Source: a virus (Duplodnaviria > Caudoviricetes). Taken from it: a DNA stretch of 43,883 nucleotides. Within the stretch, counting starts at the first letter, position 1. Each line of letters starts with the position of its first letter. The stretch lies in the IMG/VR virus record IMGVR_UViG_3300033076_000818, positions 1-43,883 of that record; one strand, written 5' to 3'. The notes beneath the pieces were generated by a model. The model was not told the origin of the DNA. It did not search any database and was given only the letters and a program-made list of their open reading frames with translations. The position numbers and the translations under genes are program-made. Below are positions 1,511 to 38,916 of this stretch, piece by piece.

Positions 1511-1739
1511 CCTGACGCCCGAACGAAGGAAGAAGCTGCGCGCCCTTGTCGACGAAGGGCACCACCTCATCACGGTGAGCCGGGCCGACGCCTACGCGCT
1601 GCTGGACATGGCCGAACGCTGCGCCAAGGCCGAGGCGAAGGCTGCAGCCTACGACAAGCTGTGCGAGGGCCAGCGCGAGCAGTGGTCGAGCATCACCCGC
1701 GACATCGTGAAGGCACAGAACAAGCAAGGAGACGCATGA
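1500..1739 (+). CDS. Hypothetical coiled-coil early protein
   Basis: GAGG RBS, start MASNLTPERRKKLRAL, coupled to next gene. Confidence 0.65.
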   Translation: MASNLTPERRKKLRALVDEGHHLITVSRADAYALLDMAERCAKAEAKAAAYDKLCEGQREQWSSITRDIVKAQNKQGDA

Positions 1740-3579: not shown

Positions 3580-3953
3580 ATCAAAGAGACTTTCTGACGG
3601 ACGTGGTAGCGCAGGCCATCGACGAGGCCGTGGCAGCCGCGATGAGGGATGACGGCGACGCCGAAAGCGTCCGCGCCTCCTGCATCGCGAAGGTGGTCGG
3701 TCACGTCTACTGGTGCGACCTAGACCCTGCCGAGTTTCTGCGGGATGCTGGGTGGAGCGTCCACGCAAAACAGTTCAAGCGCGATGGCCAATGGGTTGTC
3801 GACGCCGATGCGTGGCCCCCTCGGTGGTTGGCGACCAACGCAGTCAGTAGCGGGCCGTGCAGCTCCTTCAACGAAGCCCTGCAGTCCGTGATGCGCGTCA
3901 TCAAGCAGAAGTTCGGCAGCGACGCCGCGAGGAAGAAACTTGAACCGCTCTGA
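3576..3953 (+). CDS. Hypothetical protein
   Basis: ATGA overlap with previous stop. Confidence 0.6.
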   Translation: MNQRDFLTDVVAQAIDEAVAAAMRDDGDAESVRASCIAKVVGHVYWCDLDPAEFLRDAGWSVHAKQFKRDGQWVVDADAWPPRWLATNAVSSGPCSSFNEALQSVMRVIKQKFGSDAARKKLEPL

Positions 3954-4173
3954 GTGGGCCGCCGCCTTCGGCCAACTGATCGCCGCCCGCCGCACCGCTC
4001 GCGGCCTCACCCTCTCCGAACTCGGCAGCATGCTCGGCTCGCACCGTCAGACCGTGTGGCGCTGGGAGCACGGAGAGCAGCTGCCGGACGCCTACGACCT
4101 ATGCCGCATCGCTGAGGCGCTGGGGTGCTCGGTCAAGTCGCTGTTGCCGGCCGAGCGCGCGGGGGTCAGGTGA
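3940..4173 (+). CDS. Cro/C1-type (XRE) HTH regulator
   Basis: RRTARGLTLSELGSMLGSHRQTVWRWEHGEQLP is a typical HTH_3 pattern; TTG start after GAGGA. Confidence 0.85.
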   Translation: MNRSEWAAAFGQLIAARRTARGLTLSELGSMLGSHRQTVWRWEHGEQLPDAYDLCRIAEALGCSVKSLLPAERAGVR

Positions 4174-14679: not shown

Positions 14680-15246
14680 ATGGTCCAGAACCAGTCCACC
14701 CGCATCGCGACAAACCTCGCAATCACGTCGGGCACGATCCTGACGCCGGATCAGTACCAACTGACGGCGTCCAGGACGCAGCCCACGCGCATCGCGGGGG
14801 CGATCGTGAGCGTGTTCGAGGGCGTGCGCGACCTCGGGGCGTGCGCCGACCCGTTGTTCGCCCGCGTGCGCGTCACGCAGAACTTCGACCAGCTGGCGAC
14901 CATCCTGGAGGTGGTCCCGGTCTACTCGCCGACCACGAACCTCGCCGATGCGGACGCGATCGAGTGCTACCGAGCCCGACACCCTGGAGCAATCCTTCGG
15001 GTCGGCGCGACGTTCCACTACCCGCTTCGCCCGCTGTCGATCGCGGAGTGTTTGACGGCTGGCCTCGCGCCGATCTACCCGACGCAGTTCCAGTACGTCG
15101 GCGTCAAGTTCATCGTCACTGGCACCGCGTTCGCGGCTGGCCAAGTGCAAGTGGACATCACGCCGCACGTCGCCCCGGATGGCACAGGGACCACGACGGT
15201 CCTTGGTGCGACCCTGCCGGCCAAGATGCCGCTCACCTCGTGGTAG
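14680..15246 (+). CDS. Bbp16-like capsid cement protein 2 (divergent paralog)
   Basis: RDLGA..PLFARVRVTQNF and QYVGVKFIVTGTAFAAGQV parallel the preceding gene. Confidence 0.7.
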   Translation: MVQNQSTRIATNLAITSGTILTPDQYQLTASRTQPTRIAGAIVSVFEGVRDLGACADPLFARVRVTQNFDQLATILEVVPVYSPTTNLADADAIECYRARHPGAILRVGATFHYPLRPLSIAECLTAGLAPIYPTQFQYVGVKFIVTGTAFAAGQVQVDITPHVAPDGTGTTTVLGATLPAKMPLTSW

Positions 15247-26600: not shown

Positions 26601-29600
26601 CGAGAAGAGCGCCGACTACCGGCGCCTCATGCCGGGTCTGTTCAGCAAGAAGGGGATGAACTGGGAGGAGTTGGCGCAGGCGCTGGAGGCCGACGGATTC
26701 GGCCCGGAGCGTCCGGGGCGCCGCGACGCCGACTCTGTGCAGAGCGCCGATTACTCGTGGCTCTACGAGGCGGTGGACGACGCTGCCGGCGGGCTCAACA
26801 CCTACCGGCGCGAGGACGCCGCGAAGATGCAGGCCGAGGGGCCGCAGTCGGATGAGTTGACGCAGGCGAGGGAGGAGGCGCGGAAGGCATACCGTCGGCT
26901 GGTGGCGATCCGCGTCGTCCAGGCCGAGGGCGGTGTATCCCCCGACGTTGTCGGCGAGATGTTCGACATGAGCGGCGAAGCCATGGTGCGCGAGATGGCT
27001 TCGGCGCGTTCGCTGGCTGACGAGATCAAGGCGGTGGTCGACGACCGCATGGATAGGGAGGTGGGATTGACCGACCCGAAGCGGCTGCGGGCGGCGCTGG
27101 CCGAGGCGCTGCATGGGCGGGCGCAGGCGAAGATGATCGCCACCGAACTGCGCCACCTCCTCAAGACTACGCAGAGCACCGCGTCGATGATCGCGGCGGC
27201 CAAGGAAGCGGCACGGCGCAAGCTGCTGACGATGGAGGTAGGCCGGATCAGCCCGCGCCAGTTCGTGCAGGCCGAAGCCCGTGCGGCCAAGCAGGCGCGC
27301 GAGGCGCTGGCGTCCGGTGACGTGCAGGAGGCCATCGAGGCGCAGCGCCGCTACCTGTTGCAGCACGAGCTGACGCGGCAGGCGCTCGACATCGAGAAGG
27401 AGGTCGACAAGTTCGTCGAGGCCGTCGACGATCGCTACTTCGCCGACGACGAGAAAGTCATCAAGGGCCGGAACCTCGACATCGTGCAGGCGGCGCGGTC
27501 GATCCTTGGCGAGCACGGGCTTGCGTCGGGTCGACGCTACGAGAAGGCGCTGGCGTACCTCACCGTCCTCAAGGAGCAGAACCCCGAGCTGCACGCCGAG
27601 CTTGAGGGATTGGTCGCCGCTGCCACGATCGACGCCAAGGACTACCGCAGCACGACGCTGGAGCAGTGGCGCGTCATGGTGAACGCTGTCGAGTCGCTGT
27701 GGGACCGCGCCAAGCGTGCGCAGGAGATCGAGGTCAACGGCCAGCGCATCAGCAAGGAGATCGCGGTGCAGGAGTTGGTGGCCGCTGCACAGAAGCGGTA
27801 CGGCGAGGCCAAGCCGCCGAGCCCGACGACTGACGCTGCGCGCAAGGCCGCCAAGTGGTCGACGGGTGCCGCCATGCTGAAGCGGGTCGAGCACTTCACC
27901 GAATGGCTGGACGGCGGAACCGAAGGGCCGTGGACGCGCTACGTGTTCCGTCCGATGCGCAAGCGGTTCGACGCCTACATGGCGAGCCGGGAGAAGCGCA
28001 TCAAGGCGCTCCGGGACATCATCAAGGGCCTCGACCTCCCAGCCGAGAAGATCGCGGCCCCTGAGCTGGGCACGGTCGAGTTCAAGAACACGGCCGAGCT
28101 GTTGGGCGCCATGCTGCACATGGGCAACGCCAGCAACCTGCAGAAGCTGCTGGGCGGCTACGGGTGGGGCGCGCGGCTGGCCGACGGTTCGGTTGATACG
28201 TCCGGCTGGTGGCGCTTCATGGCCCGCGAGATGGGGCCGAACGGGCGCATCAAGAAGGAGCACGTCGACGCGCTGCAGGCCATGTGGGATCTGATGGAGG
28301 ACCTCAAGGGCGAGGCCCAACAGGTCAACCGCGCGCTCTACGGCACCTACTTCGAGGAGATCGAGGCGCAGAGCTTTGCGACGCCGTGGGGCCGCTACAA
28401 GGGCGGATACGCGCCCGCGAAGCCCGACCCGACGCTCAACCCCGACCTCGGCGTGCGCGAGGGCTTGGAGGCGATCCAGGACGCCGAACGCAACTTCCGC
28501 GAGTCGATGCCGTCGGCCGGCCGTGGCTTCGCCAAGACGCGCAACCAGTCGACGCGCCCGCTGCTGCTGGACGTCCGGCTTGTGGGCGGGCATGTCGACG
28601 AGGTGCTGCGGTTCGTCCATCTGCAGCCGTCGCTTCGGGACGTGGCGAGCCTCCTGCGCAACCGCGAGCTGGCCGGCTACCTGAACAGCGTCGACAAGAC
28701 GGCGATCCAGGACGTGCTTGTGCCGTGGCTGGAGCGCACGGCCGCGAACCGCACGACGAAGCGGGGCGCGTGGTCGGGCACCGACACGTTGCTCAACTGG
28801 CTCAAGACCACGTCGGGCCTTGCCGCCATGTTCGGCAGCATCACGAACTCGCTCCAGCAGGTGACCGGCCTGAGCAACGCCGCTGTCTACGTGCCGTGGC
28901 GCCACCTCCGCGCGGCGATGTGGGACGGCTGGACCAACAGCACGGCCGAGCGCGTGGCGTCGCTGTCGACGTTCATGGACAGCCGGCTGAACAGCCAGGT
29001 CGGCCAGCTGCAGGACGACATCGACTTGGCGCTGCAGCCGTCGCGGTGGGCTCAGGTCCGCGACTGGACGAACCGCAACGGCTACTTCCTGCAGCGCATG
29101 GTGCAGAACCGCGTCGATCCCATAGTGTGGATGGCCGCGTTCAACCACAGCCTGGAGCAGTCCGGCGCCAACGAGACGGATGCCGCAGCGGTGGCCAAGG
29201 CCGTCGACCACGCCGACAGCGTCGTGCGCAAGTCGCAGGGCAGCCAGTCCGCCATCGACGTGGCCAAGTACGAGGTGGGGACGCCGCTGGTACGCGTGCT
29301 GACGCAGTTCTCAGGCTACTTCAACACCGTGCTCAACCAGATCGCCAGCCGGCAGGGTGTCGGCGCCAAGACGGTCGCGGCGGCGCATGCGCTCATCCTG
29401 CCGACCATCGTGGCGGGCGCGATCGCGGCGTCGCTGAACGGGCGCGAGGACATCGAGGACAAGGACGGCGACGGCTACACCGACGAGTACTTGGCTTGGT
29501 TCTTCGGCCAGCAGGCGCGCGCTGGTGCTTCGCTGGTGCCGGTGCTGGGGCCGAACGCGATGCGCTTCCTCGGTTCGACTGGCGTGATCCCAGGCGTCGA

Positions 29601-29805
29601 GAACCCCGGCAACCGCATCGCGCAGGCGCCGGCCTTCTCCATGCTGGAATCGGTCCTGCGCACGGCTGCGGCGCTGCCGAAGCTGGCATCGGGCGATGCG
29701 ACGCCGCGTCAGGTGCGCGAGTTCTGGCGGGCACTGACGCTGTCGGGCGTGCCGGTGGCGCCGATCGGGACCGTGCTCACGATCGGGGCAGACGAGCGGA
29801 GGTAG
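23686..29805 (+). CDS. Large internal virion/DNA-transfer protein (gp16-like) with HExxH motif
   Basis: 2039 aa; hydrophobic Gly/Ala segment near N-terminus; ADPTSFMHESGHFF with downstream SETFAYSFEDY. Confidence 0.85.
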   Translation: MTDPTLSPLPPLSQEPTNPYVAPMLSELAVAQQQGPGSAQNPYVGSMLSELDTAAKERDQRFAASYRAAMRTDPAMFAEAKAIAKQMGEDVSPDAVLGNLKVAREVVKARAVRYEDLRQRSPILAEQLSKTDFVRIARDDLDNLETTESTFGWLKRNVQAGQAANMRGYIGTRKALGIATPQEEEALIALEQLQREANMDPGVSGNVAQTLGQMADTVPTAAAIGAAAATPMLALGPAAPVSASTTFTVASGAALFTQSAMIEGGNAYLDMIDNGYDHQTAASVALGVGLVNGSLELVGTKAVAKPFQAVFAREAVSALSKAMTRETAARAFGTFVRDYAKSLGAEVFTETAQEAVNIAAEDFARRISRPDKPEQTPGQVMDRLGEIFTKTAMSMGVLSVPGPALKYAADAIRAGQATQQARAFDEMAKLAGESQARKLDGESYGSTVKAMAEANGAPLIYVDAKALGDVLRQQDKAAVEAGNGRTKSAASQLDEKLPGLSEQIAEAERDGGDVVIRTDDWASKLAGTELDAILRPHMRFDPEGVSLAQAEEYRKSLADMQAGMQGEKGVGTEAERAFAESAAKVEAGYLEQIEATKTVDAKTARAQSRLLGAFVETQSQRLGITPEEFAKKYPLSIGVGVLTPDAQTALRQEGDKEPRAAYNPKDWTLMLFGGLKADPTSFMHESGHFFMHAMEEMAASNEVTRTEWAKALEAMGTTQEKWAAADQAQRRKISETFAYSFEDYLAQGEAPSAELRSLFSQFRVWMLRVYGTVRDALNVLFRKESGGADLPALSSELRGVFDRMLASQQAIDLAQAERGMASLFLDEKARKAAGITEEQWADMQDGDRMAREEAVAKLTAMSLRGLEYFENSRNKALRELGSQARKKRQEFRAEAEKEVAARPVYRAIRLLRDGVYVAQDGSTETVPDGERVRLDAKAVRRILGVEEQAPKFQTLVARIVEMGGINPKGYPGEKSADYRRLMPGLFSKKGMNWEELAQALEADGFGPERPGRRDADSVQSADYSWLYEAVDDAAGGLNTYRREDAAKMQAEGPQSDELTQAREEARKAYRRLVAIRVVQAEGGVSPDVVGEMFDMSGEAMVREMASARSLADEIKAVVDDRMDREVGLTDPKRLRAALAEALHGRAQAKMIATELRHLLKTTQSTASMIAAAKEAARRKLLTMEVGRISPRQFVQAEARAAKQAREALASGDVQEAIEAQRRYLLQHELTRQALDIEKEVDKFVEAVDDRYFADDEKVIKGRNLDIVQAARSILGEHGLASGRRYEKALAYLTVLKEQNPELHAELEGLVAAATIDAKDYRSTTLEQWRVMVNAVESLWDRAKRAQEIEVNGQRISKEIAVQELVAAAQKRYGEAKPPSPTTDAARKAAKWSTGAAMLKRVEHFTEWLDGGTEGPWTRYVFRPMRKRFDAYMASREKRIKALRDIIKGLDLPAEKIAAPELGTVEFKNTAELLGAMLHMGNASNLQKLLGGYGWGARLADGSVDTSGWWRFMAREMGPNGRIKKEHVDALQAMWDLMEDLKGEAQQVNRALYGTYFEEIEAQSFATPWGRYKGGYAPAKPDPTLNPDLGVREGLEAIQDAERNFRESMPSAGRGFAKTRNQSTRPLLLDVRLVGGHVDEVLRFVHLQPSLRDVASLLRNRELAGYLNSVDKTAIQDVLVPWLERTAANRTTKRGAWSGTDTLLNWLKTTSGLAAMFGSITNSLQQVTGLSNAAVYVPWRHLRAAMWDGWTNSTAERVASLSTFMDSRLNSQVGQLQDDIDLALQPSRWAQVRDWTNRNGYFLQRMVQNRVDPIVWMAAFNHSLEQSGANETDAAAVAKAVDHADSVVRKSQGSQSAIDVAKYEVGTPLVRVLTQFSGYFNTVLNQIASRQGVGAKTVAAAHALILPTIVAGAIAASLNGREDIEDKDGDGYTDEYLAWFFGQQARAGASLVPVLGPNAMRFLGSTGVIPGVENPGNRIAQAPAFSMLESVLRTAAALPKLASGDATPRQVREFWRALTLSGVPVAPIGTVLTIGADERR

Positions 29806-30190
29806 CCGCTCCAATCGGGATCACCAGCGAATCCGGCAAGCGGTACATGGCGCCAGTCAGGGGGTCTACCAGCAGCATCCCCACGAGTCCGGGGAAAAGC
29901 AGGTTGCCCCAGTACCAGCCGTTCAGCTGGCCGCCGATCTCGGTCTCGCTAATCTGTCCCGTGTCGCTGGTGGCTCTGACGCGGTAGCGCGCGGCGGCGA
30001 ACCAGCCGTCGCCCGACTGCAGGTTGACGACGAACGGCGTGCGCTGGCGATGGACGCAGACGCCGTTGTCGTCGAACACCTCGACGCTTGCGTTCGACGG
30101 GTGCGCCGAGATGGACACGGGCCATTCGCTCCTGCTGACGATGCTGGCGCAGGAGGGGAGGATGGCGAGAAGTGGGAGGATCGCTTTCAT
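29777..30190 (-). CDS. PEGA-like domain lipoprotein
   Basis: Lipobox LPSC, CASIVS, NGWYWGNLLF...VDPLTGAMYRL family pattern. Confidence 0.8.
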   Translation of the reverse strand: MKAILPLLAILPSCASIVSRSEWPVSISAHPSNASVEVFDDNGVCVHRQRTPFVVNLQSGDGWFAAARYRVRATSDTGQISETEIGGQLNGWYWGNLLFPGLVGMLLVDPLTGAMYRLPDSLVIPIGAATSARLPRS

Positions 30191-30456
30191 GGGTACACCT
30201 GCGCCGACTTGTCCTGGCTCTGCCCGCTAGCGTCGACAACATCAACGGATGACGCGTCAGCTGGCACGTACACTGGTACGCACGGGTCATCCTTGGTCAC
30301 CTCGGTCTTGTAACTGTCGTCAGTGCCACCGAAGGAGATTTCCAGGACCGCCGGTGAGGTCGCCCCCGTGCTCTCGAAGTCGTAGCAAACGGTCACCCAA
30401 CACGGCACGGAGTGGATCGGGTTCGGCGAGATGGTGATAAGTTGCAGTAGAGTCAT
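30187..30456 (-). CDS. Small acidic beta-rich protein
   Basis: 89 aa, coordinates overlap both neighbours by 4 bp. Confidence 0.6.
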   Translation of the reverse strand: MTLLQLITISPNPIHSVPCWVTVCYDFESTGATSPAVLEISFGGTDDSYKTEVTKDDPCVPVYVPADASSVDVVDASGQSQDKSAQVYP

Positions 30457-30737
30457 CTAGTTGCTTTGTGAATGGCTTCGATAGCAATGGCCCCATCTGG
30501 CCCAGCATCGCGAAGGGCTTGGATGGCTTCGATGATGCGAACCCGCAGGGAAGCACAGGCCATGCTTGGGTCGGTGTGCTTCTGCCTTGCCAACCGCAGC
30601 GCCTCCTCGAACGTGTACTGGCTGACGCGGTGGCCGCCGTAGGCGCCGTGGCAAGTCCAAGCGATGCCGACGATGCACACGCACAGCACTGCGAGGCGGC
30701 GAGCGGTCAGGAATTGAGAGGTCCGGCTGACTTCCAT
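30453..30737 (-). CDS. Single-TM membrane protein
   Basis: TM LAVLCVCIVGIAWTC; starts 8 bp after repressor stop. Confidence 0.65.
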   Translation of the reverse strand: MEVSRTSQFLTARRLAVLCVCIVGIAWTCHGAYGGHRVSQYTFEEALRLARQKHTDPSMACASLRVRIIEAIQALRDAGPDGAIAIEAIHKATR

Positions 30738-30745
30738 CGGGGGGT

Positions 30746-31165
30746 CTACTCCTTCTTGCGACGCCAGCGTTCGGGCAGCGTCCTGTCGATCTCAGCATAC
30801 TGCTGCGGCGTGCAGAGCAAGTGCCGCTCAGGAACGACAGCGTACCACGCCTGCCCCTTCCCGATCTTCTTGCCGCTACGGATCTGTTCCACTGTGTCGA
30901 GGTCGACGAGGAACATTCCAGAAATCGGACGGTTCTCGACGGCCGGGTCGCCGCACAGGTGGCCCACGGTCGTCCCGAGTGCAGCGGCCAGACGGCGCAG
31001 GCGCTCGATGGTGTCGTCAAGCGAACCCGACTCCCAGTCGCTCAGCGTGCGCTGCGGGATCTTGGCGGGCTCAGCGACTTGCTGCTGACTCCAGCGGAGA
31101 GCCTCGCGGTGGGCGCGGATCGACTCGGACAGTGGTGGGCGTGCTTGTTCGAAAGAATCTTGCAT
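30746..31165 (-). CDS. CI-like XRE HTH repressor (139 aa, no S24 peptidase domain evident)
   Basis: IRAHREALRWSQQQVAEPAKIPQRTLSDWESG; AGGAG RBS before ATG 31165; divergent from early operon. Confidence 0.85.
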   Translation of the reverse strand: MQDSFEQARPPLSESIRAHREALRWSQQQVAEPAKIPQRTLSDWESGSLDDTIERLRRLAAALGTTVGHLCGDPAVENRPISGMFLVDLDTVEQIRSGKKIGKGQAWYAVVPERHLLCTPQQYAEIDRTLPERWRRKKE

Positions 31166-31234
31166 GGGCTCCTGCGTCGCGCTAGAACCCGCCCAGCCAC
31201 ACCTTGAGGACCGCATGCAGAACTCAACCGGAAA

Positions 31235-31257
31235 CCGTCTTGACGGGTCACTCCGTC
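31235..31257. promoter_or_regulatory. Operator-like CCGTC/GACGG half-sites overlapping a TTGACG box
   Basis: CCGTC-TT-GACGG-GTCACT-CCGTC in the divergent intergenic region; no well-spaced -10 found. Confidence 0.4.
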
Positions 31258-31479
31258 GGGACACTCAGCGCAGCGAACCTCGCGATGCCTTGGGCAGGAT
31301 CGCGACGCATCGGCACCCTCGGTGTGGCAATCGAGACGTCGCCGCGCTGATTCGCCGCCCCGTCACCCAGGCACGGGGCGGCACCTTTCTCTTCCCCTCG
31401 GGAACATTCGCGATCCACGGCGCGATTTCCCTGCCCGTCGCCCGCTCTGACCAGCACGAAGGCGACGGGAACCTATTCC

Positions 31480-31554
31480 GTTCGGGTAGCTCAACGGTAG
31501 AGCGTCGGTTTCCAAAACCGGAAGATGTGGGTTCGACTCCCACCCCGTTCGCCA
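31480..31554 (+). tRNA. trnW: tRNA-Trp (CCA) with two U-U mismatches in acceptor stem
   Basis: D arm GCTC-AACGGTA-GAGC, anticodon arm TCGGT-TTCCAAA-ACCGG, T arm GTGGG-TTCGACT-CCCAC, 3' GCCA. Confidence 0.85.
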
Positions 31555-31718
31555 AGTCCGATTGGGCACCCGTTACGGACTCCAAGTGGAACGCGGTGTC
31601 GGTGAGCGAGGGGCGCGCGGCCGTGACGGCGGGCCCCAACTTCTACGGCCCGTCCATCGCGTGGGATCGTTCGTCCAAGCCGGGCGGTCTATGGGGCGGT
31701 GGGCGGGCCAACTTCTTC

Positions 31719-31794
31719 GCCCTGGTAGCTCAAGCAGAGCGACCGGCCAGACGTGGCCGGGGTGATGCTGGTGCAAGTCCAGCACGGGGCGCCA
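31719..31794 (+). tRNA. Aberrant tRNA-like RNA, anticodon undefined
   Basis: 76 nt; TAGCTC-AAGCA-GAGC D arm, CCGGCCA-GACG-TGGCCGG arm, GCTGG-TGCAAGT-CCAGC T arm, 3' GCCA. Confidence 0.65.
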
Positions 31795-31892
31795 CCTTCT
31801 TCGACAGCCGCGCGTCGCATGGTGTGCAGGGAGATCCTGCGCCGGGCTATGGACTTCGGCCTCATGAAACACGGCGCGCGGCCGTCGTTCTC

Positions 31893-31968
31893 CTCGGTGT
31901 AGCTCAACTGGTAGAGCGCCCGCCTTTGAAGCGGACCGTTGCAGGTTCGAGCCCTGCCACCGACACCA
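31893..31968 (+). tRNA. trnQ: tRNA-Gln (TTG)
   Basis: GCTC-AACTGGTA-GAGC, CCCGC-CTTTGAA-GCGGA, GCAGG-TTCGAGC-CCTGC, 3' ACCA; C1-C72 unpaired. Confidence 0.88.
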
Positions 31969-32221
31969 TCTTCGCCCGGCGCGTGTCCGGGCACCCGATG
32001 CGCGCAGCTGGGAACGTCCGCAGGATGCCTCAGGGGCTGCGTGTCGGCGCCGACGTGAACGCGAACGAGGTGGGCGCGTCGGCTTCTTACACCGCGACCG
32101 CCTCGCCCTTGAATGGCGAAGGCTGCATCAGCTCCCGGAATCCCCTGAGTGCGAGAAGGCCGCGCGAGACGAGACGCGCAGGCCGGGGGTGGGGCGGTCG
32201 CATCTTCTTCGCGGGGTGCGC

Positions 32222-32546
32222 GTGAGCCTCCCCGAGTTCATCCGCGTCACGATGGCCGCGCGCCTGTCGCGCCTGTCGCTTGATCGACTGCGCACGCTCG
32301 CCGATCGCGGGCATTTCGCGCGCCGCTACATCCTCGGCGGCCTCGACTACTTCAAGGTCGACGAGTTCCTCGACGCTGTCGTGAAGCTGCCGGGTGATCC
32401 GAAGCGGCTGCGCGACGAGCGCGACTTCCTCGACTGGCAGGCGGCCGGTCGCCCAGTGCATCGGCGGCGTCCTGCAAGTCAGGGCTCGCGGCGCGGTCCA
32501 ACATCGCGAGAACTGCCGTCGCGCGCGCAAGGCGGTGTCGGCATGA
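32222..32546 (+). CDS. Excisionase/MerR-like HTH protein with apparent 1-nt frameshift near 32447
   Basis: IRVTMAARLSRLSLDRLRTLADRG; after 32447 GC-rich third positions move to the frame ending at TGA 32544-32546. Confidence 0.55.
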
Positions 32547-32674
32547 CCCGCAAGCCGAAGCCCATGGAGGCCGACCCGCTCTGCGCCACCGGCTGCACCA
32601 CCCCGCCGGCCTACGTCGTCGCGGGTGAGGCCATGTGCTGGGACTGCGCCGACGAGATGGGGGTGGCGTCGTGA
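32543..32674 (+). CDS. Small Zn-finger protein (43 aa)
   Basis: CATGC...CWDC; ATGA/GTGA coupling. Confidence 0.55.
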   Translation: MTRKPKPMEADPLCATGCTTPPAYVVAGEAMCWDCADEMGVAS

Positions 32675-33378
32675 TCCCCGAGCAACGCCTGCGCGAGATC
32701 GCAAGGATTGTCAGCCAAGGCCACACGGCGAGCCACGACTACAGCGAGTTCGTGTCCGCGTGCGCCGAGCTGCTGGCCGCCCGCGAGACCATCGAACGGC
32801 TGACCGAGGAGCGCGACAGCGAGGCGCGCGAGGCGGCTGGATACCAGAAGATCGCCAGGGAGGTGGTCAACGCAGAGGAGCCCGGCCTCTTGGTCCTGCT
32901 CGTCGATCAGCAAGGGGCGGAGGTTCGCATCTTCGGCCCTGACCGAGACGCCGAGGAGCGATTCGGCGAGGCGGTGGCTCGCTGGTGGAAGCTGCTGCAG
33001 GCGACCTCGGAGGGTCTGGAGCTGGAGGAGCGGACCAAGGAGCGCGACGCCGCCCGCGCCGAGGCCGAGAGGGTGACCGAGCAGCGCGACACGCTCCTCG
33101 CCGCCGTGATGGACGGCACCGCCGAGTTCCGCGAGTGGCAGGAGTGCGAAGCCGACGCGATCGAAGGGCAGGAAGCCGAGGTCGAGCGCGACCACAACCG
33201 GATGCTGGCGGCGCTGCACGCGCTTCGTCGCAAGGCCAAGCACGTCCAGAACGGGACGCGCTTCGTCGTCGAGGCGGGGTCTCTGCCGGCGCACCTGCAG
33301 CGTGCCGAGCAGCCGAAGCCGGTTGCGTGGCCGCATCTGCCGGAAGTGGGTCGTCCAGATTCCGAGGTGCAGCCGTGA
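32671..33378 (+). CDS. Coiled-coil early protein
   Basis: MIPEQRLREIA...ELLAARETIERLTEERD; GTGA start. Confidence 0.7.
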   Translation: MIPEQRLREIARIVSQGHTASHDYSEFVSACAELLAARETIERLTEERDSEAREAAGYQKIAREVVNAEEPGLLVLLVDQQGAEVRIFGPDRDAEERFGEAVARWWKLLQATSEGLELEERTKERDAARAEAERVTEQRDTLLAAVMDGTAEFREWQECEADAIEGQEAEVERDHNRMLAALHALRRKAKHVQNGTRFVVEAGSLPAHLQRAEQPKPVAWPHLPEVGRPDSEVQP

Positions 33379-33833
33379 TGGACGCCATCAAGGAGCGCAT
33401 CACCGAGTGGGCGAATCACGTCCGCGGCTACGACCAGATCGGCGCCGTGGCCAACGTCATCGAGAACGGCATCGAGAAGCACCACGCCAAGGGCCTGGAG
33501 TGCGAGGCGGCGTGGCGTGCGATCGAGGAAGCCGTAGTCGCCGAGATCGCCAAGGAGCTGCACCGCATGCGCGTCGTGTTGAGCGGCGAATGCCGCGGAT
33601 CGCGCGACTACGTGTTCCGTCGCGTCGCCGAGCTGCGCGGCAACTGCAGGCGGTGCGGCTACAGCAAGCGCGAGCACCACGCGCCGGACGGCGGGGGCTG
33701 CGCGGGTGACTTCGCCGAGCAACTACCGAAGGGGCCGGCGCACGGTCGCTTCACGGACGCTGAGCGCGTGGAGCTGGACGCATTGAAGCGCAAAGCGTTC
33801 GAAGACGCGAAGCCGGCCGGGGGTGGAGCATGA
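33378..33833 (+). CDS. Hypothetical protein
   Basis: GAGGTG RBS; CRRCGYSKREHH motif. Confidence 0.7.
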   Translation: MDAIKERITEWANHVRGYDQIGAVANVIENGIEKHHAKGLECEAAWRAIEEAVVAEIAKELHRMRVVLSGECRGSRDYVFRRVAELRGNCRRCGYSKREHHAPDGGGCAGDFAEQLPKGPAHGRFTDAERVELDALKRKAFEDAKPAGGGA

Positions 33834-33950
33834 CGCTGATCCACCATGCCGAGCTGACCGCGCGCAAGGTCCACCGCTGCGAGTGGTGCGAGACCGACCA
33901 TCGCCGAGAAACTAAAGAAGCTAGGGCACGACCTAGGAGGTGACGCATGA
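33830..33950 (+). pseudogene. Deletion remnant: ARKVHRCEWC N-terminus joined out of frame to a C-terminal tail
   Basis: Frame from ATG 33830 stops at 33943; another frame (TIAEKLKKLGHDLGGDA*) carries the ATGA coupling to 33947. Confidence 0.45.
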
Positions 33951-34165
33951 ACGAGAAGCACGACAAGGCCTGGAAGGACCTCGCGAAGCGAGCCCGCGCA
34001 GGCGAGCGTCACGTAGTTGGCGGCAAGGATGCAGAGCGCCTACTGCGCGCACTGCCAGACGAAGGCATGAGCGAAACCGAGGTGGACGCCATCGTGCGAG
34101 GGGTGGTCGCCGGGCGCGCCATGCGGGAGAAGCCCAAGGCTGAGGATGTCGGGGGTGGCGCATGA
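33947..34165 (+). CDS. Hypothetical protein
   Basis: AGGAGGTG RBS, ATGA coupling. Confidence 0.65.
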   Translation: MNEKHDKAWKDLAKRARAGERHVVGGKDAERLLRALPDEGMSETEVDAIVRGVVAGRAMREKPKAEDVGGGA

Positions 34166-38709: not shown

Positions 38710-38916
38710 CTAGCGTTTCGGGAGCGAGGCGCGCAGCACCTTGACGCTGACCCGCAGGGCCTTGGCCAGCTTGTTGGCGGTGGTGACCCGGACCGAGGCG
38801 ACCTCTCCGCGCCGGATCTTGCGCAGGCCAAGCGGGGTGATGCCAGCCAGCTTACAGAGCTCGCGGAGGCTAAGTCCACGATCGTCGATGAGTTGTTGCA
38901 GGGTCTTGGCGACCAT
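38710..38916 (-). CDS. Cro/C1-type HTH regulator (68 aa)
   Basis: LQQLIDDRGLSLRELCKLAGITPLGLRKIRRG; TACCCT -10-like box 7 nt before ATG. Confidence 0.85.
   Translation of the reverse strand: MVAKTLQQLIDDRGLSLRELCKLAGITPLGLRKIRRGEVASVRVTTANKLAKALRVSVKVLRASLPKR

Follow-up and report, generated by a model that had tools for sequence, protein, structure and literature searches.

The window analyzed here is the whole of a 43.9-kb virus record (IMG/VR IMGVR_UViG_3300033076_000818, 43,883 nucleotides; Duplodnaviria, Caudoviricetes) that encodes terminase, portal, head and tail genes, and whose closest isolated relatives, at ~25–36% identity, include Limnohabitans phage DC33 and Bordetella phage BPP-1. 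Between a divergent gene for an XRE/CI-like repressor and an operon of small genes that runs to the right from position 32222, the plus strand carries an array of tRNAs and other folded RNAs at 31265–32201 (Table 1). The array is real, and its units, judged by compensatory changes among relatives, are selected RNA structures. A model that had read the letters of this DNA before us (the original prediction) had described the array and had missed that it lies within a frame-conserved open reading frame (ORF) of 336 codons with a ribosome-binding site, which we call the carrier ORF. As far as the sequences of relatives tell, the frame of this ORF is conserved and its protein is not, and we consider the overall architecture, RNA modules swapped at linkers within one conserved frame, to be very probably correct.

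The units and linkers were confirmed in the sequence at the coordinates first proposed, and twelve folded units account for 840 of the 937 nt (90%) of 31265–32201; a further small hairpin at 31239–31260 was absent from the first list. The linkers consist largely of pyrimidines (79 of 102 nt, with 5 G) and are mostly predicted to be unpaired (0.50–0.97). TCTTC occurs six times (0.56 expected) and CTTCTT four times (0.16 expected), both motifs having been picked after being seen. When each unit was compared with 300 shuffles of itself, seven of the nine units other than tRNA-Trp and tRNA-Gln folded at z −2.45 to −5.4, whereas units 1 and 5 folded no better than their shuffles (Table 1), and fixed 100-nt windows did not single out the region, none of the ten starting at 31201–32101 reaching z below −2. 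Local folding of the whole array gave z −4.9 on the plus strand (0 of 60 shuffles equally stable) and −2.5 on the minus strand; the corresponding values for the array of the sister phage G001 were −3.7 and −0.7; the mean over 35 other 946-nt windows was −0.6, and the most stable of them reached −4.0. G-U pairs make up 33 of 290 pairs on the plus strand vs 11 of 264 on the minus strand, which agrees, as the folding does, with the earlier claim that RNA on the plus strand is favored. The claim that the two ends of each unit base-pair was right in part: 31974–32083 forms three hairpins instead, and the ends of the units starting at 31480, 31562 and 31974 are not paired with each other in the local ensemble.

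ARAGORN reported three tRNAs in the array, namely tRNA-Trp (31480–31554), tRNA-??? (31719–31794) and tRNA-Gln (31893–31968). The first and the third are also the sole Rfam matches above the gathering score in 29000–34000, at more than twice the gathering score of 29 for tRNA (RF00005), and both have the cloverleaf, the 7-nt anticodon loop, the T-loop and CCA. The second, unit 7, which the original prediction had called tRNA-like, has a cloverleaf as its minimum free energy fold (z −2.5), but it has neither the anticodon loop nor an RF00005 match, and no Rfam match below E 2.4 was found in 31555–31900. The match at E 2.4, to twister-sister, covers the T arm alone and was rejected; a likeness of unit 5 to RNase P RNA was rejected as well, with no Rfam support. 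Several units end in stem-ACC or CCA, as tRNA precursors do. CsrA-type ANGGA motifs are not enriched in the array (3 vs 3.5 expected), and codon usage offers no clear reason for carrying tRNA-Trp and tRNA-Gln.

Table 1 Features of the array locus, in window positions (z, folding score against shuffles; SD, Shine-Dalgarno)
Feature	Position	Strand	Remarks
XRE/CI-like helix-turn-helix (HTH) repressor gene, 139 aa	30746..31165	−	Divergent from array
Candidate sigma-70-type promoter, TTGCAT-17 nt-TAGAAC	31160..31188	+	Weak, 7/12 consensus positions, read from sequence
SD GAGGA and ATG of carrier ORF	31206..31217	+	Both conserved in G001
Carrier ORF, 336 codons	31215..32225	+	Spans whole array; TGA overlaps GTG at 32222
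Small hairpin ahead of unit 1	31239..31260	+	9 pairs, −11.6 kcal/mol; G001 change compatible with G-U
Unit 1, multi-helix RNA	31265..31350	+	First in every array seen; z −1.4 alone
Unit 2, hairpin	31354..31382	+	z −3.9; identical in G001
Units 3a and 3b, pair of hairpins separated by one base	31400..31469	+	z −3.4
tRNA-Trp(CCA)	31480..31554	+	Rfam 60.3 bits; encoded CCA; two U-U acceptor-stem mismatches
Unit 5, least supported	31562..31639	+	z −0.07; one 38-nt match, 6 differences, in X6
Unit 6, long G-U-rich hairpin	31647..31709	+	z −5.4; 3 two-sided and 3 one-sided changes vs G001
Unit 7, tRNA-shaped RNA	31719..31794	+	D and T arms, CCA; GACG tetraloop replaces anticodon loop
Unit 8, three-way-junction RNA	31803..31886	+	z −2.9; model R1 72 bits
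tRNA-Gln(UUG)	31893..31968	+	Rfam 59.3 bits; C-C mismatch at 1:72; encoded CCA
Unit 10, three hairpins	31974..32083	+	z −2.6; almost invariant where present; missing from G001
Unit 11, long closing stem, variable interior	32094..32201	+	z −3.3
Pyrimidine linkers	31383, 31470, 31638, 31710, 31794, 31887, 31968, 32084, 32202 (span 31383..32210)	+	Module-exchange joints
First early gene, small HTH-like protein	32222..32674	+	GTG overlaps carrier ORF stop

Relatives of the array came from several searches. The pattern of unit 3b gave nine hits in IMG/VR, one of which was a true match, the sister phage G001 (locus L002), and none of 45 hits in metagenomes was true. The DNA patterns of units 7 and 10 had no IMG/VR match; locus searches of IMG/VR, GTDB and JGI based on the repressor found nothing, nor did a search with a large virion protein. 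A conserved early gene retrieved G001 and one weak match only, a profile search of 1.84 billion proteins was dominated by generic HTH proteins, and among isolated phages the array was matched via its tRNAs only. Contigs from eight sequencing runs added pieces of arrays at a depth of 2–7, for which the differences are those listed; the contig of run X2 is nearly identical to the window, X5 is uninformative on length, and X16 was flagged as probably DNA.

The G001 array shares with the window the upstream region and units 1, 2, 3a, 3b, 6 and 8, which are followed by three different modules, and it contains no Rfam tRNA. In a joint fold of the six common units, 94 pairs are unchanged, 10 have one-sided changes and 8 have two-sided changes; the count of zero broken pairs is no test, the joint fold being derived from the same two rows. 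Unit 1 accounts for two two-sided changes and one one-sided change, in unit 3a the pairs 31403/31428 and 31404/31427 are changed on both sides in G001 as well as in runs X8 and X16, and unit 3b is identical in G001 and X6. G001 is without tRNA-Trp and unit 5 (168 nt) and without unit 7 (84 nt), and the junctions fall in linkers. Contigs X11 and X6 skip from 31474 to 31791, so that tRNA-Trp is missing from these two as well as from G001, and unit 5 is gained or lost jointly with it. X8 has a joint from 31888 to 32088 that removes tRNA-Gln and unit 10, again with the junction in linkers, and other modules occupy the tRNA-Gln slot in relatives. The matches in X4, X5, X6 and X7 begin only at 31964–31967. 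Unit 10 shows no difference among those listed in X4, X5, X6, X7 and X8, and all differences listed for unit 11 in X4, X7, X8 and X16 lie within 32112–32156. Units 1–3b, at the 5′ end, are present in every array seen. On the evidence of these sequences, arrays acquire, drop and exchange modules at the linkers and can do without the tRNAs; both the compensatory changes and the unit gain and loss that the original prediction had proposed to look for in homologous arrays are thus found in G001 and the contigs of six runs.

The three modules that distinguish G001 are absent from the window. They are an irregular cloverleaf with an 8-bp acceptor and a T arm (L002 1734–1808, minus strand), a hairpin with a purine-rich loop (1661–1723, minus strand) and a three-way unit whose long C/U loop resembles an anti-Shine-Dalgarno tract (1559–1651, minus strand). 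Module X of G001 folds 8/5 without a long arm and does not qualify as a tRNA (RF00005).

Across the array, the carrier frame has no stop codon and the other two plus-strand frames have 11 and 5. The carrier frame stayed open in 22 of 5000 shuffles, and any plus-strand frame did so in 92 of 5000; in G001, the same frame is open for 231 codons through the common units (299 of 5000 shuffles). A third array ORF, P0166, which a protein search retrieved together with the ORF of G001, has 39% identity and extends from the same methionine to the same C-terminal motif with other modules in between; P0165 and P0166 start at the homologous methionine. The pairing energy of the carrier Shine-Dalgarno sequence is −5.9, and that of other phage genes is −3.0 to −12.2. 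Furthermore, all eight measurable non-zero length changes are multiples of three (168, 84, 3, 3, 195, +3, −3 and −3), a result with a chance of 1.5e-4 if lengths were random; one further change is net zero, the 255 of X11 equals that of G001 and was left uncounted, and four joints have no measurable length. Each of the 12 segments is read in a phase that is open (chance 0.004); for tRNA-Trp and for unit 7, only one phase is.

These observations bear on the possibility that the locus is a shrunken phage tRNA/non-coding RNA operon, in which GC-rich stems and linker recombination happen to leave a frame open and no translation serves a purpose. The high GC content leaves few stops (shuffle mean 4.8 per frame), the genome has many long shadow frames, the codon score of the carrier ORF is under that of real genes, and unit 8 has no frame constraint elsewhere (26/18/10 of 54). 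However, the length changes in multiples of three include small indels within units, which linker recombination does not explain, the Shine-Dalgarno sequence and ATG are conserved, the stop overlaps the next start, and the third array is open from the same methionine; we regard a chance frame as quite unlikely.

Conservation of the frame does not extend to the amino acids. Substitutions relative to G001 fall evenly on the three codon positions (23/27/30, with no position bias), as do the variant sites of the contigs (14/14/15), and 11 of 28 single changes are synonymous vs 27% expected. The codon score is −0.14 vs +0.25 to +0.60 for eight phage genes given in frame. The product has no protein family and no predicted fold (predicted local distance difference test, pLDDT, 35.5; the shallow alignment limits the fold test). 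The ORF at 31215–32225 therefore has the open frame, Shine-Dalgarno sequence, start and stop conservation of a coding gene, and it lacks amino-acid purifying selection, host-like codon use and a fold or family. Since the codon positions are even, the codon score is low and neither family nor fold was found, we conclude that the amino acids are not selected. The original prediction had named conservation of this ORF, given there as 31164–32225, as a protein as evidence against an RNA cassette; the open frame is conserved and the amino acids are not, and the ORF result therefore changes the model rather than refuting it. The same data weigh on a functional disordered protein or polyprotein, in which the linkers would be read as N/T/I-Phe-Phe and the RNA folds would be secondary. 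This idea would account for an open frame with start and stop signals, for the gene callers having called the ORF in relatives and for five of six linker motifs being in frame 0 in the window, but with no codon-position bias, fold or family, whole tRNAs inside the frame and the last linker out of phase in G001, it is most improbable.

Unit 8 is, by covariation across its sequences, a member of a widespread and well-supported family of three-way-junction RNAs without an Rfam entry, so that of the RNAs the original prediction could not identify, at least this one belongs to a real, uncatalogued family. An 18-nt pattern found 89 IMG/VR loci in 29 distinct contexts, G001 included, and in 88 of the 89 the core is followed by a variable hairpin, then GAAACA, then a closing helix; a looser pattern found 27 GTDB loci, all 27 with the same features and 25 of them distinct once the duplicates (L145, L165 and one L164 copy) had been dropped, which gives 54 distinct contexts besides the window. 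The core is invariant partly by construction, while GAAACA and the outer helices lay outside the search patterns. Pairing holds in 85.7% (IMG/VR) and 88.6% (GTDB) of cells vs 66.8% and 62.9% in shuffles, and falls to 39–48% with slid partners; the second (GTDB) set has two-sided changes in all three helices. Model R1 gave 59 matches in 70 sources, three tandem second copies included, and none in 14 chance-hit loci or L067. The family has no Rfam match. Hammerhead and other Rfam ribozymes were rejected, as the would-be core positions covary as a stem, and a likeness to double T-loop RNA found no support in Rfam. The core sequence occurs in no main text of the literature searched, and unit 8 may be among the 10,006 candidates of Fremin et al. 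(PMC10690425).

Carriers of unit 8 are viral contigs and genomes labelled Acidobacteria, Actinobacteria, Verrucomicrobia, Planctomycetota, Myxococcota and Nitrospira. Because some of them are cultured strains, unit 8 is directly testable. Its neighbors elsewhere are unrelated phage genes or, in 5 of 54 contexts (L056, L119, L148, L159 and L169), tRNAs; the Rfam check of these neighborhoods covered 12 loci. Outside the arrays described here unit 8 follows no frame rule (core length modulo 3, 26/18/10 of 54). Nevertheless, one member lies within a 955-codon open frame (L115 1943–2026, minus strand), and those of L151, L155, L069 and L168 are also in long stop-free frames. Diverged tandem pairs occur in L132 (1949–2118), L144 (1465–1625) and L160 (1406–1564), and L164 carries an identical pair, one inverted relative to the other, at a distance of 1.3 kb. 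A Xylanimicrobium contig (L148 700–2800) holds an array of seven tRNAs with long structured-looking spacers, one of which is unit 8; at the gathering score, none of the remaining spacers has an Rfam match. Such a distribution could mean that selfish or hitch-hiking structured elements, unit 8 possibly being self-cleaving or mobile, pile up in a tolerant spot and need only an open frame, as the positions between unrelated genes, the tandem copies and the 955-codon frame would allow. Against this, each of five records searched has one copy per genome, no target-site pattern was seen, no Rfam ribozyme matches, real tRNAs take part, and both the order of the slots and the conservation of the 5′ units speak for a function; we rate it very unlikely.

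The genes around the array form a lambdoid cI-cro layout, with the divergent XRE repressor and an early operon. The repressor gene matches Pfam HTH_31 and HTH_3 (E 8e-10 and 1e-9) and PHROG repressor families, and has five homologues. The candidate promoter overlaps the repressor start codon; G001 retains its TTG, 17-nt spacing and TAGAAC with a diverged spacer, and the element is not among the matches of a consensus promoter scan. TTGACG at 31240 was rejected as a promoter because it is not kept in G001. No intrinsic terminator was found at the locus. Neither the window nor G001 has a match to a tyrosine integrase, and a temperate life cycle is therefore not established. The 32222 gene has four homologues at 85–94% and falls in Atlas clusters (0.93) with HTH_17 on 11–12% of members; its protein has no Pfam or PDB match and a model pLDDT of 54.6, and a Xis/Cox-like product is a lead only. 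This protein has 150 aa in the window and 99–108 aa in the four relatives. A small Cys-rich ORF that lies downstream in G001 ends in a sequence matching the additional C-terminal part, which suggests a frameshift fusion. Two more small HTH-regulator-like ORFs lie at 38710–38916 (minus strand), with a counterpart in G001, and at 3940–4173 (plus strand). The two strongest-folding 100-nt windows of the genome, 14101–14200 (z −6.0) and 14701–14800 (z −5.5; 30 shuffles), follow just after the major capsid gene.

In G001, the repressor gene is reduced to 8 codons that resemble the start of P0004 and are fused with the distal half of the following gene (L002 2334–2530), and no homologue of the 32222 gene was found in 20.6 kb around the array. 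An RNA ligase gene (PF09414; L002 774–1325, minus strand) lies two genes downstream of the G001 array; the window has no match to it. G001 is possibly a virulent derivative that has retained the RNA array, to go by these sequences. The original prediction took the array for a repressor-controlled cassette of small RNAs that would be cut at the linkers and act as decoys or inhibitors. Retention of the array beside a repressor gene cut to 8 codons, and the lack of an integrase match in both genomes, do not favor repressor control. The further suggestion that the array stands where cro belongs needs a correction, in that a gene of HTH type comes after it, at 32222. As a whole, the first interpretation is partly supported, namely for selected structures, for modularity at the linkers and for at least one real new family. 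The position in the immunity region also invites comparison with C4- or CI-like immunity RNAs, which would be processed by RNase P and act antisense to the phage's own early transcripts; RNase P accepts the hairpin RNAs of P1/P7 and P4, as the available text describes (PMC5499578). Yet there is no Rfam C4 match at E up to 10 or 5, and the array has 15 + 15 12-mer matches to the genome vs control means of 11 + 23, the longest being 13–14 nt, a count to which targets of 7–8 nt are invisible. An immunity RNA is thus extremely unlikely here.

We propose that a modular RNA array, swapped at its linkers inside a translated carrier ORF, has its RNAs released by host tRNA-processing enzymes, and that these RNAs support or protect translation, a reading to which, taken whole, we give a little less than an even chance. 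Translation of the carrier ORF is probable from its start, stop and frame; release of the RNAs as separate molecules is somewhat more likely than not, again from sequence features; and an anti-defence role of the released RNAs, drawn by analogy, is less likely than not. Ribosomes would start at 31215, cover the kilobase, prevent Rho polarity and hand over to the 32222 gene, the carrier ORF being translated for translation's sake and its stop-start overlap coupling it to the first early gene. Transcripts without ribosomes would fold and be cut at the linkers, by RNase P at the 5′ ends and by RNase E or exonucleases at the 3′ ends; the cutting-out of units is expected because tRNAs with encoded CCA require it. 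The weakest step is the last, in which released tRNAs, tRNA mimics and other RNAs would counter host defences that attack tRNA or translation. Each step has a precedent in the accessible portions of published reports: ribosomes on a nascent transcript protect it from Rho (PMC12360218), phage hairpin RNAs are among the substrates that bacterial RNase P cuts (PMC5499578), and some phage tRNAs counter tRNA-attacking defences (PMC11555353).

Several observations weigh against this proposal. The linkers are far shorter than the 60–90 nt of optimal Rho sites and are flanked by structure, so that the need for shielding is not evident. Translation would compete with folding, and cutting would leave a stop-less mRNA. 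P0166 was found as a protein and is necessarily open, which shows possibility and not frequency. Long stop-free frames are common outside genes in this GC-rich genome, and the G001 array has an open frame on its minus strand as well. The last linker of G001 is in another phase, its stop does not overlap the next start, and G001 is without the HTH-like gene and an intact repressor; in P0013, the last linker shares its reading frame with the downstream gene. Synonymous changes are slightly over expectation (11 vs 7.5). Finally, the complete DNA arrays are two only, those of the window and G001, the others being contig pieces.

Because translation and folding compete, stalled translation could favor release. 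A translation-gated RNA arsenal, in which translating ribosomes would keep the modules unfolded and the early operon on, and defence-stalled translation would let the modules fold and be cut out, is a doubtful extension of our proposal. The counter-defence RNAs would then appear exactly when translation is attacked, and the linkers, resembling CRISPR repeats, would be both cutting sites and recombination joints under a rule that keeps the frame. Alternatively, the array could be an unprocessed cis-acting leader, its structures being remodeled as the ORF is translated and early-operon termination or antitermination being set in this way, as by an upstream ORF (uORF) attenuator or a put-like element, with only an occasional tRNA cut out. 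Its place at the head of the early operon, the Shine-Dalgarno sequence and ATG, the stop-start overlap, the presence of 5′ units 1–3b in every array seen and a downstream Shine-Dalgarno sequence predicted to be mostly paired (0.19 unpaired) are all in keeping with a leader, and uORF control of Rho is established in the text available (PMC12360218). We nevertheless consider it unlikely, as the units are self-contained and exchangeable rather than alternative folds, unit 8 occurs elsewhere beside unrelated genes and tRNAs, no intrinsic terminator was found, and the CCA-ending tRNAs imply cutting.

Annotation treats RNA genes and protein genes as exclusive, whereas the ORF described here holds tRNAs and other RNA genes in frame, and its frame survives the exchange of modules. 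Gene callers therefore report the array as a hypothetical protein (P0165, P0166), which conceals it, and it would escape RNA screens that leave out coding regions. Should translation gate the release of the RNAs or shield the cargo from Rho, the phage would be using a novel means of expressing non-coding RNA, and an array shown to be so gated or shielded would be categorically new. In the literature searched, which was mostly open-access, no RNA array inside a frame-conserved ORF was found.

In layout, the array works like a phage tRNA/non-coding RNA polycistron, with several RNA genes on one strand and single-stranded spacers. Phage tRNA operons with interspersed non-tRNA RNAs include those with T4 RNA C and D and the tRNA arrays with GOLLD. 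As in these operons, tRNAs and other folded RNAs stand in one run with short single-stranded spacers, and relatives of unit 8 flank tRNAs elsewhere; in contrast to them, non-tRNA units dominate here, the tRNAs are optional (none in G001), the non-tRNA units match nothing in Rfam, and a conserved ORF that heads the early operon encloses the whole run. Neither the window nor G001 has an Rfam match to GOLLD or ROOL. The C4 RNA of P1/P7 and the CI RNA of P4 are single RNAs with antisense targets. Like these, the units described here are small structured RNAs of a phage immunity or early region, theirs being cut by RNase P according to the text available (PMC5499578), but here there are ~12 units, with no C4 match and no target found. 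Clusters of irregular tRNA-like RNAs, some probably unused in translation, have been linked to toxin-antitoxin loci by Mukai et al. (PMC5389517); in comparison with such allo-tRNA polycistrons, as far as that source is available, the tRNA-like units of the window are 7/5 with a short variable region and no long variable arm, so that none has the 8/4 or 9/3 acceptor branch and long variable arm of an allo-tRNA, most units are not tRNA-like, and the available part of the source makes no mention of an enclosing ORF. The prophage RNA sRNA-17 of E. coli K1 is likewise a prophage small RNA without an Rfam family, and it is expressed, but it is described in the accessible text as a single 193-nt RNA with no ORF reported (PMC7719688), a likeness by description and not by sequence. 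Anti-defence phage tRNAs are phage-borne, as here, and early-expressed in the portions available (PMC11555353; PMC11464382), and G001 has an RNA ligase gene downstream of its array; here, unlike there, most of the cargo is non-tRNA and the window has no RNA ligase match. Finally, the tnaC, mgtL and speFL uORFs are, as their accessible description has it, ORFs whose translation protects or exposes a transcript and whose product may be of no importance (PMC12360218), as we propose for the carrier ORF; those are short metabolite-sensing leader peptides, whereas the frame described here spans 231–336 codons of exchangeable RNA genes.

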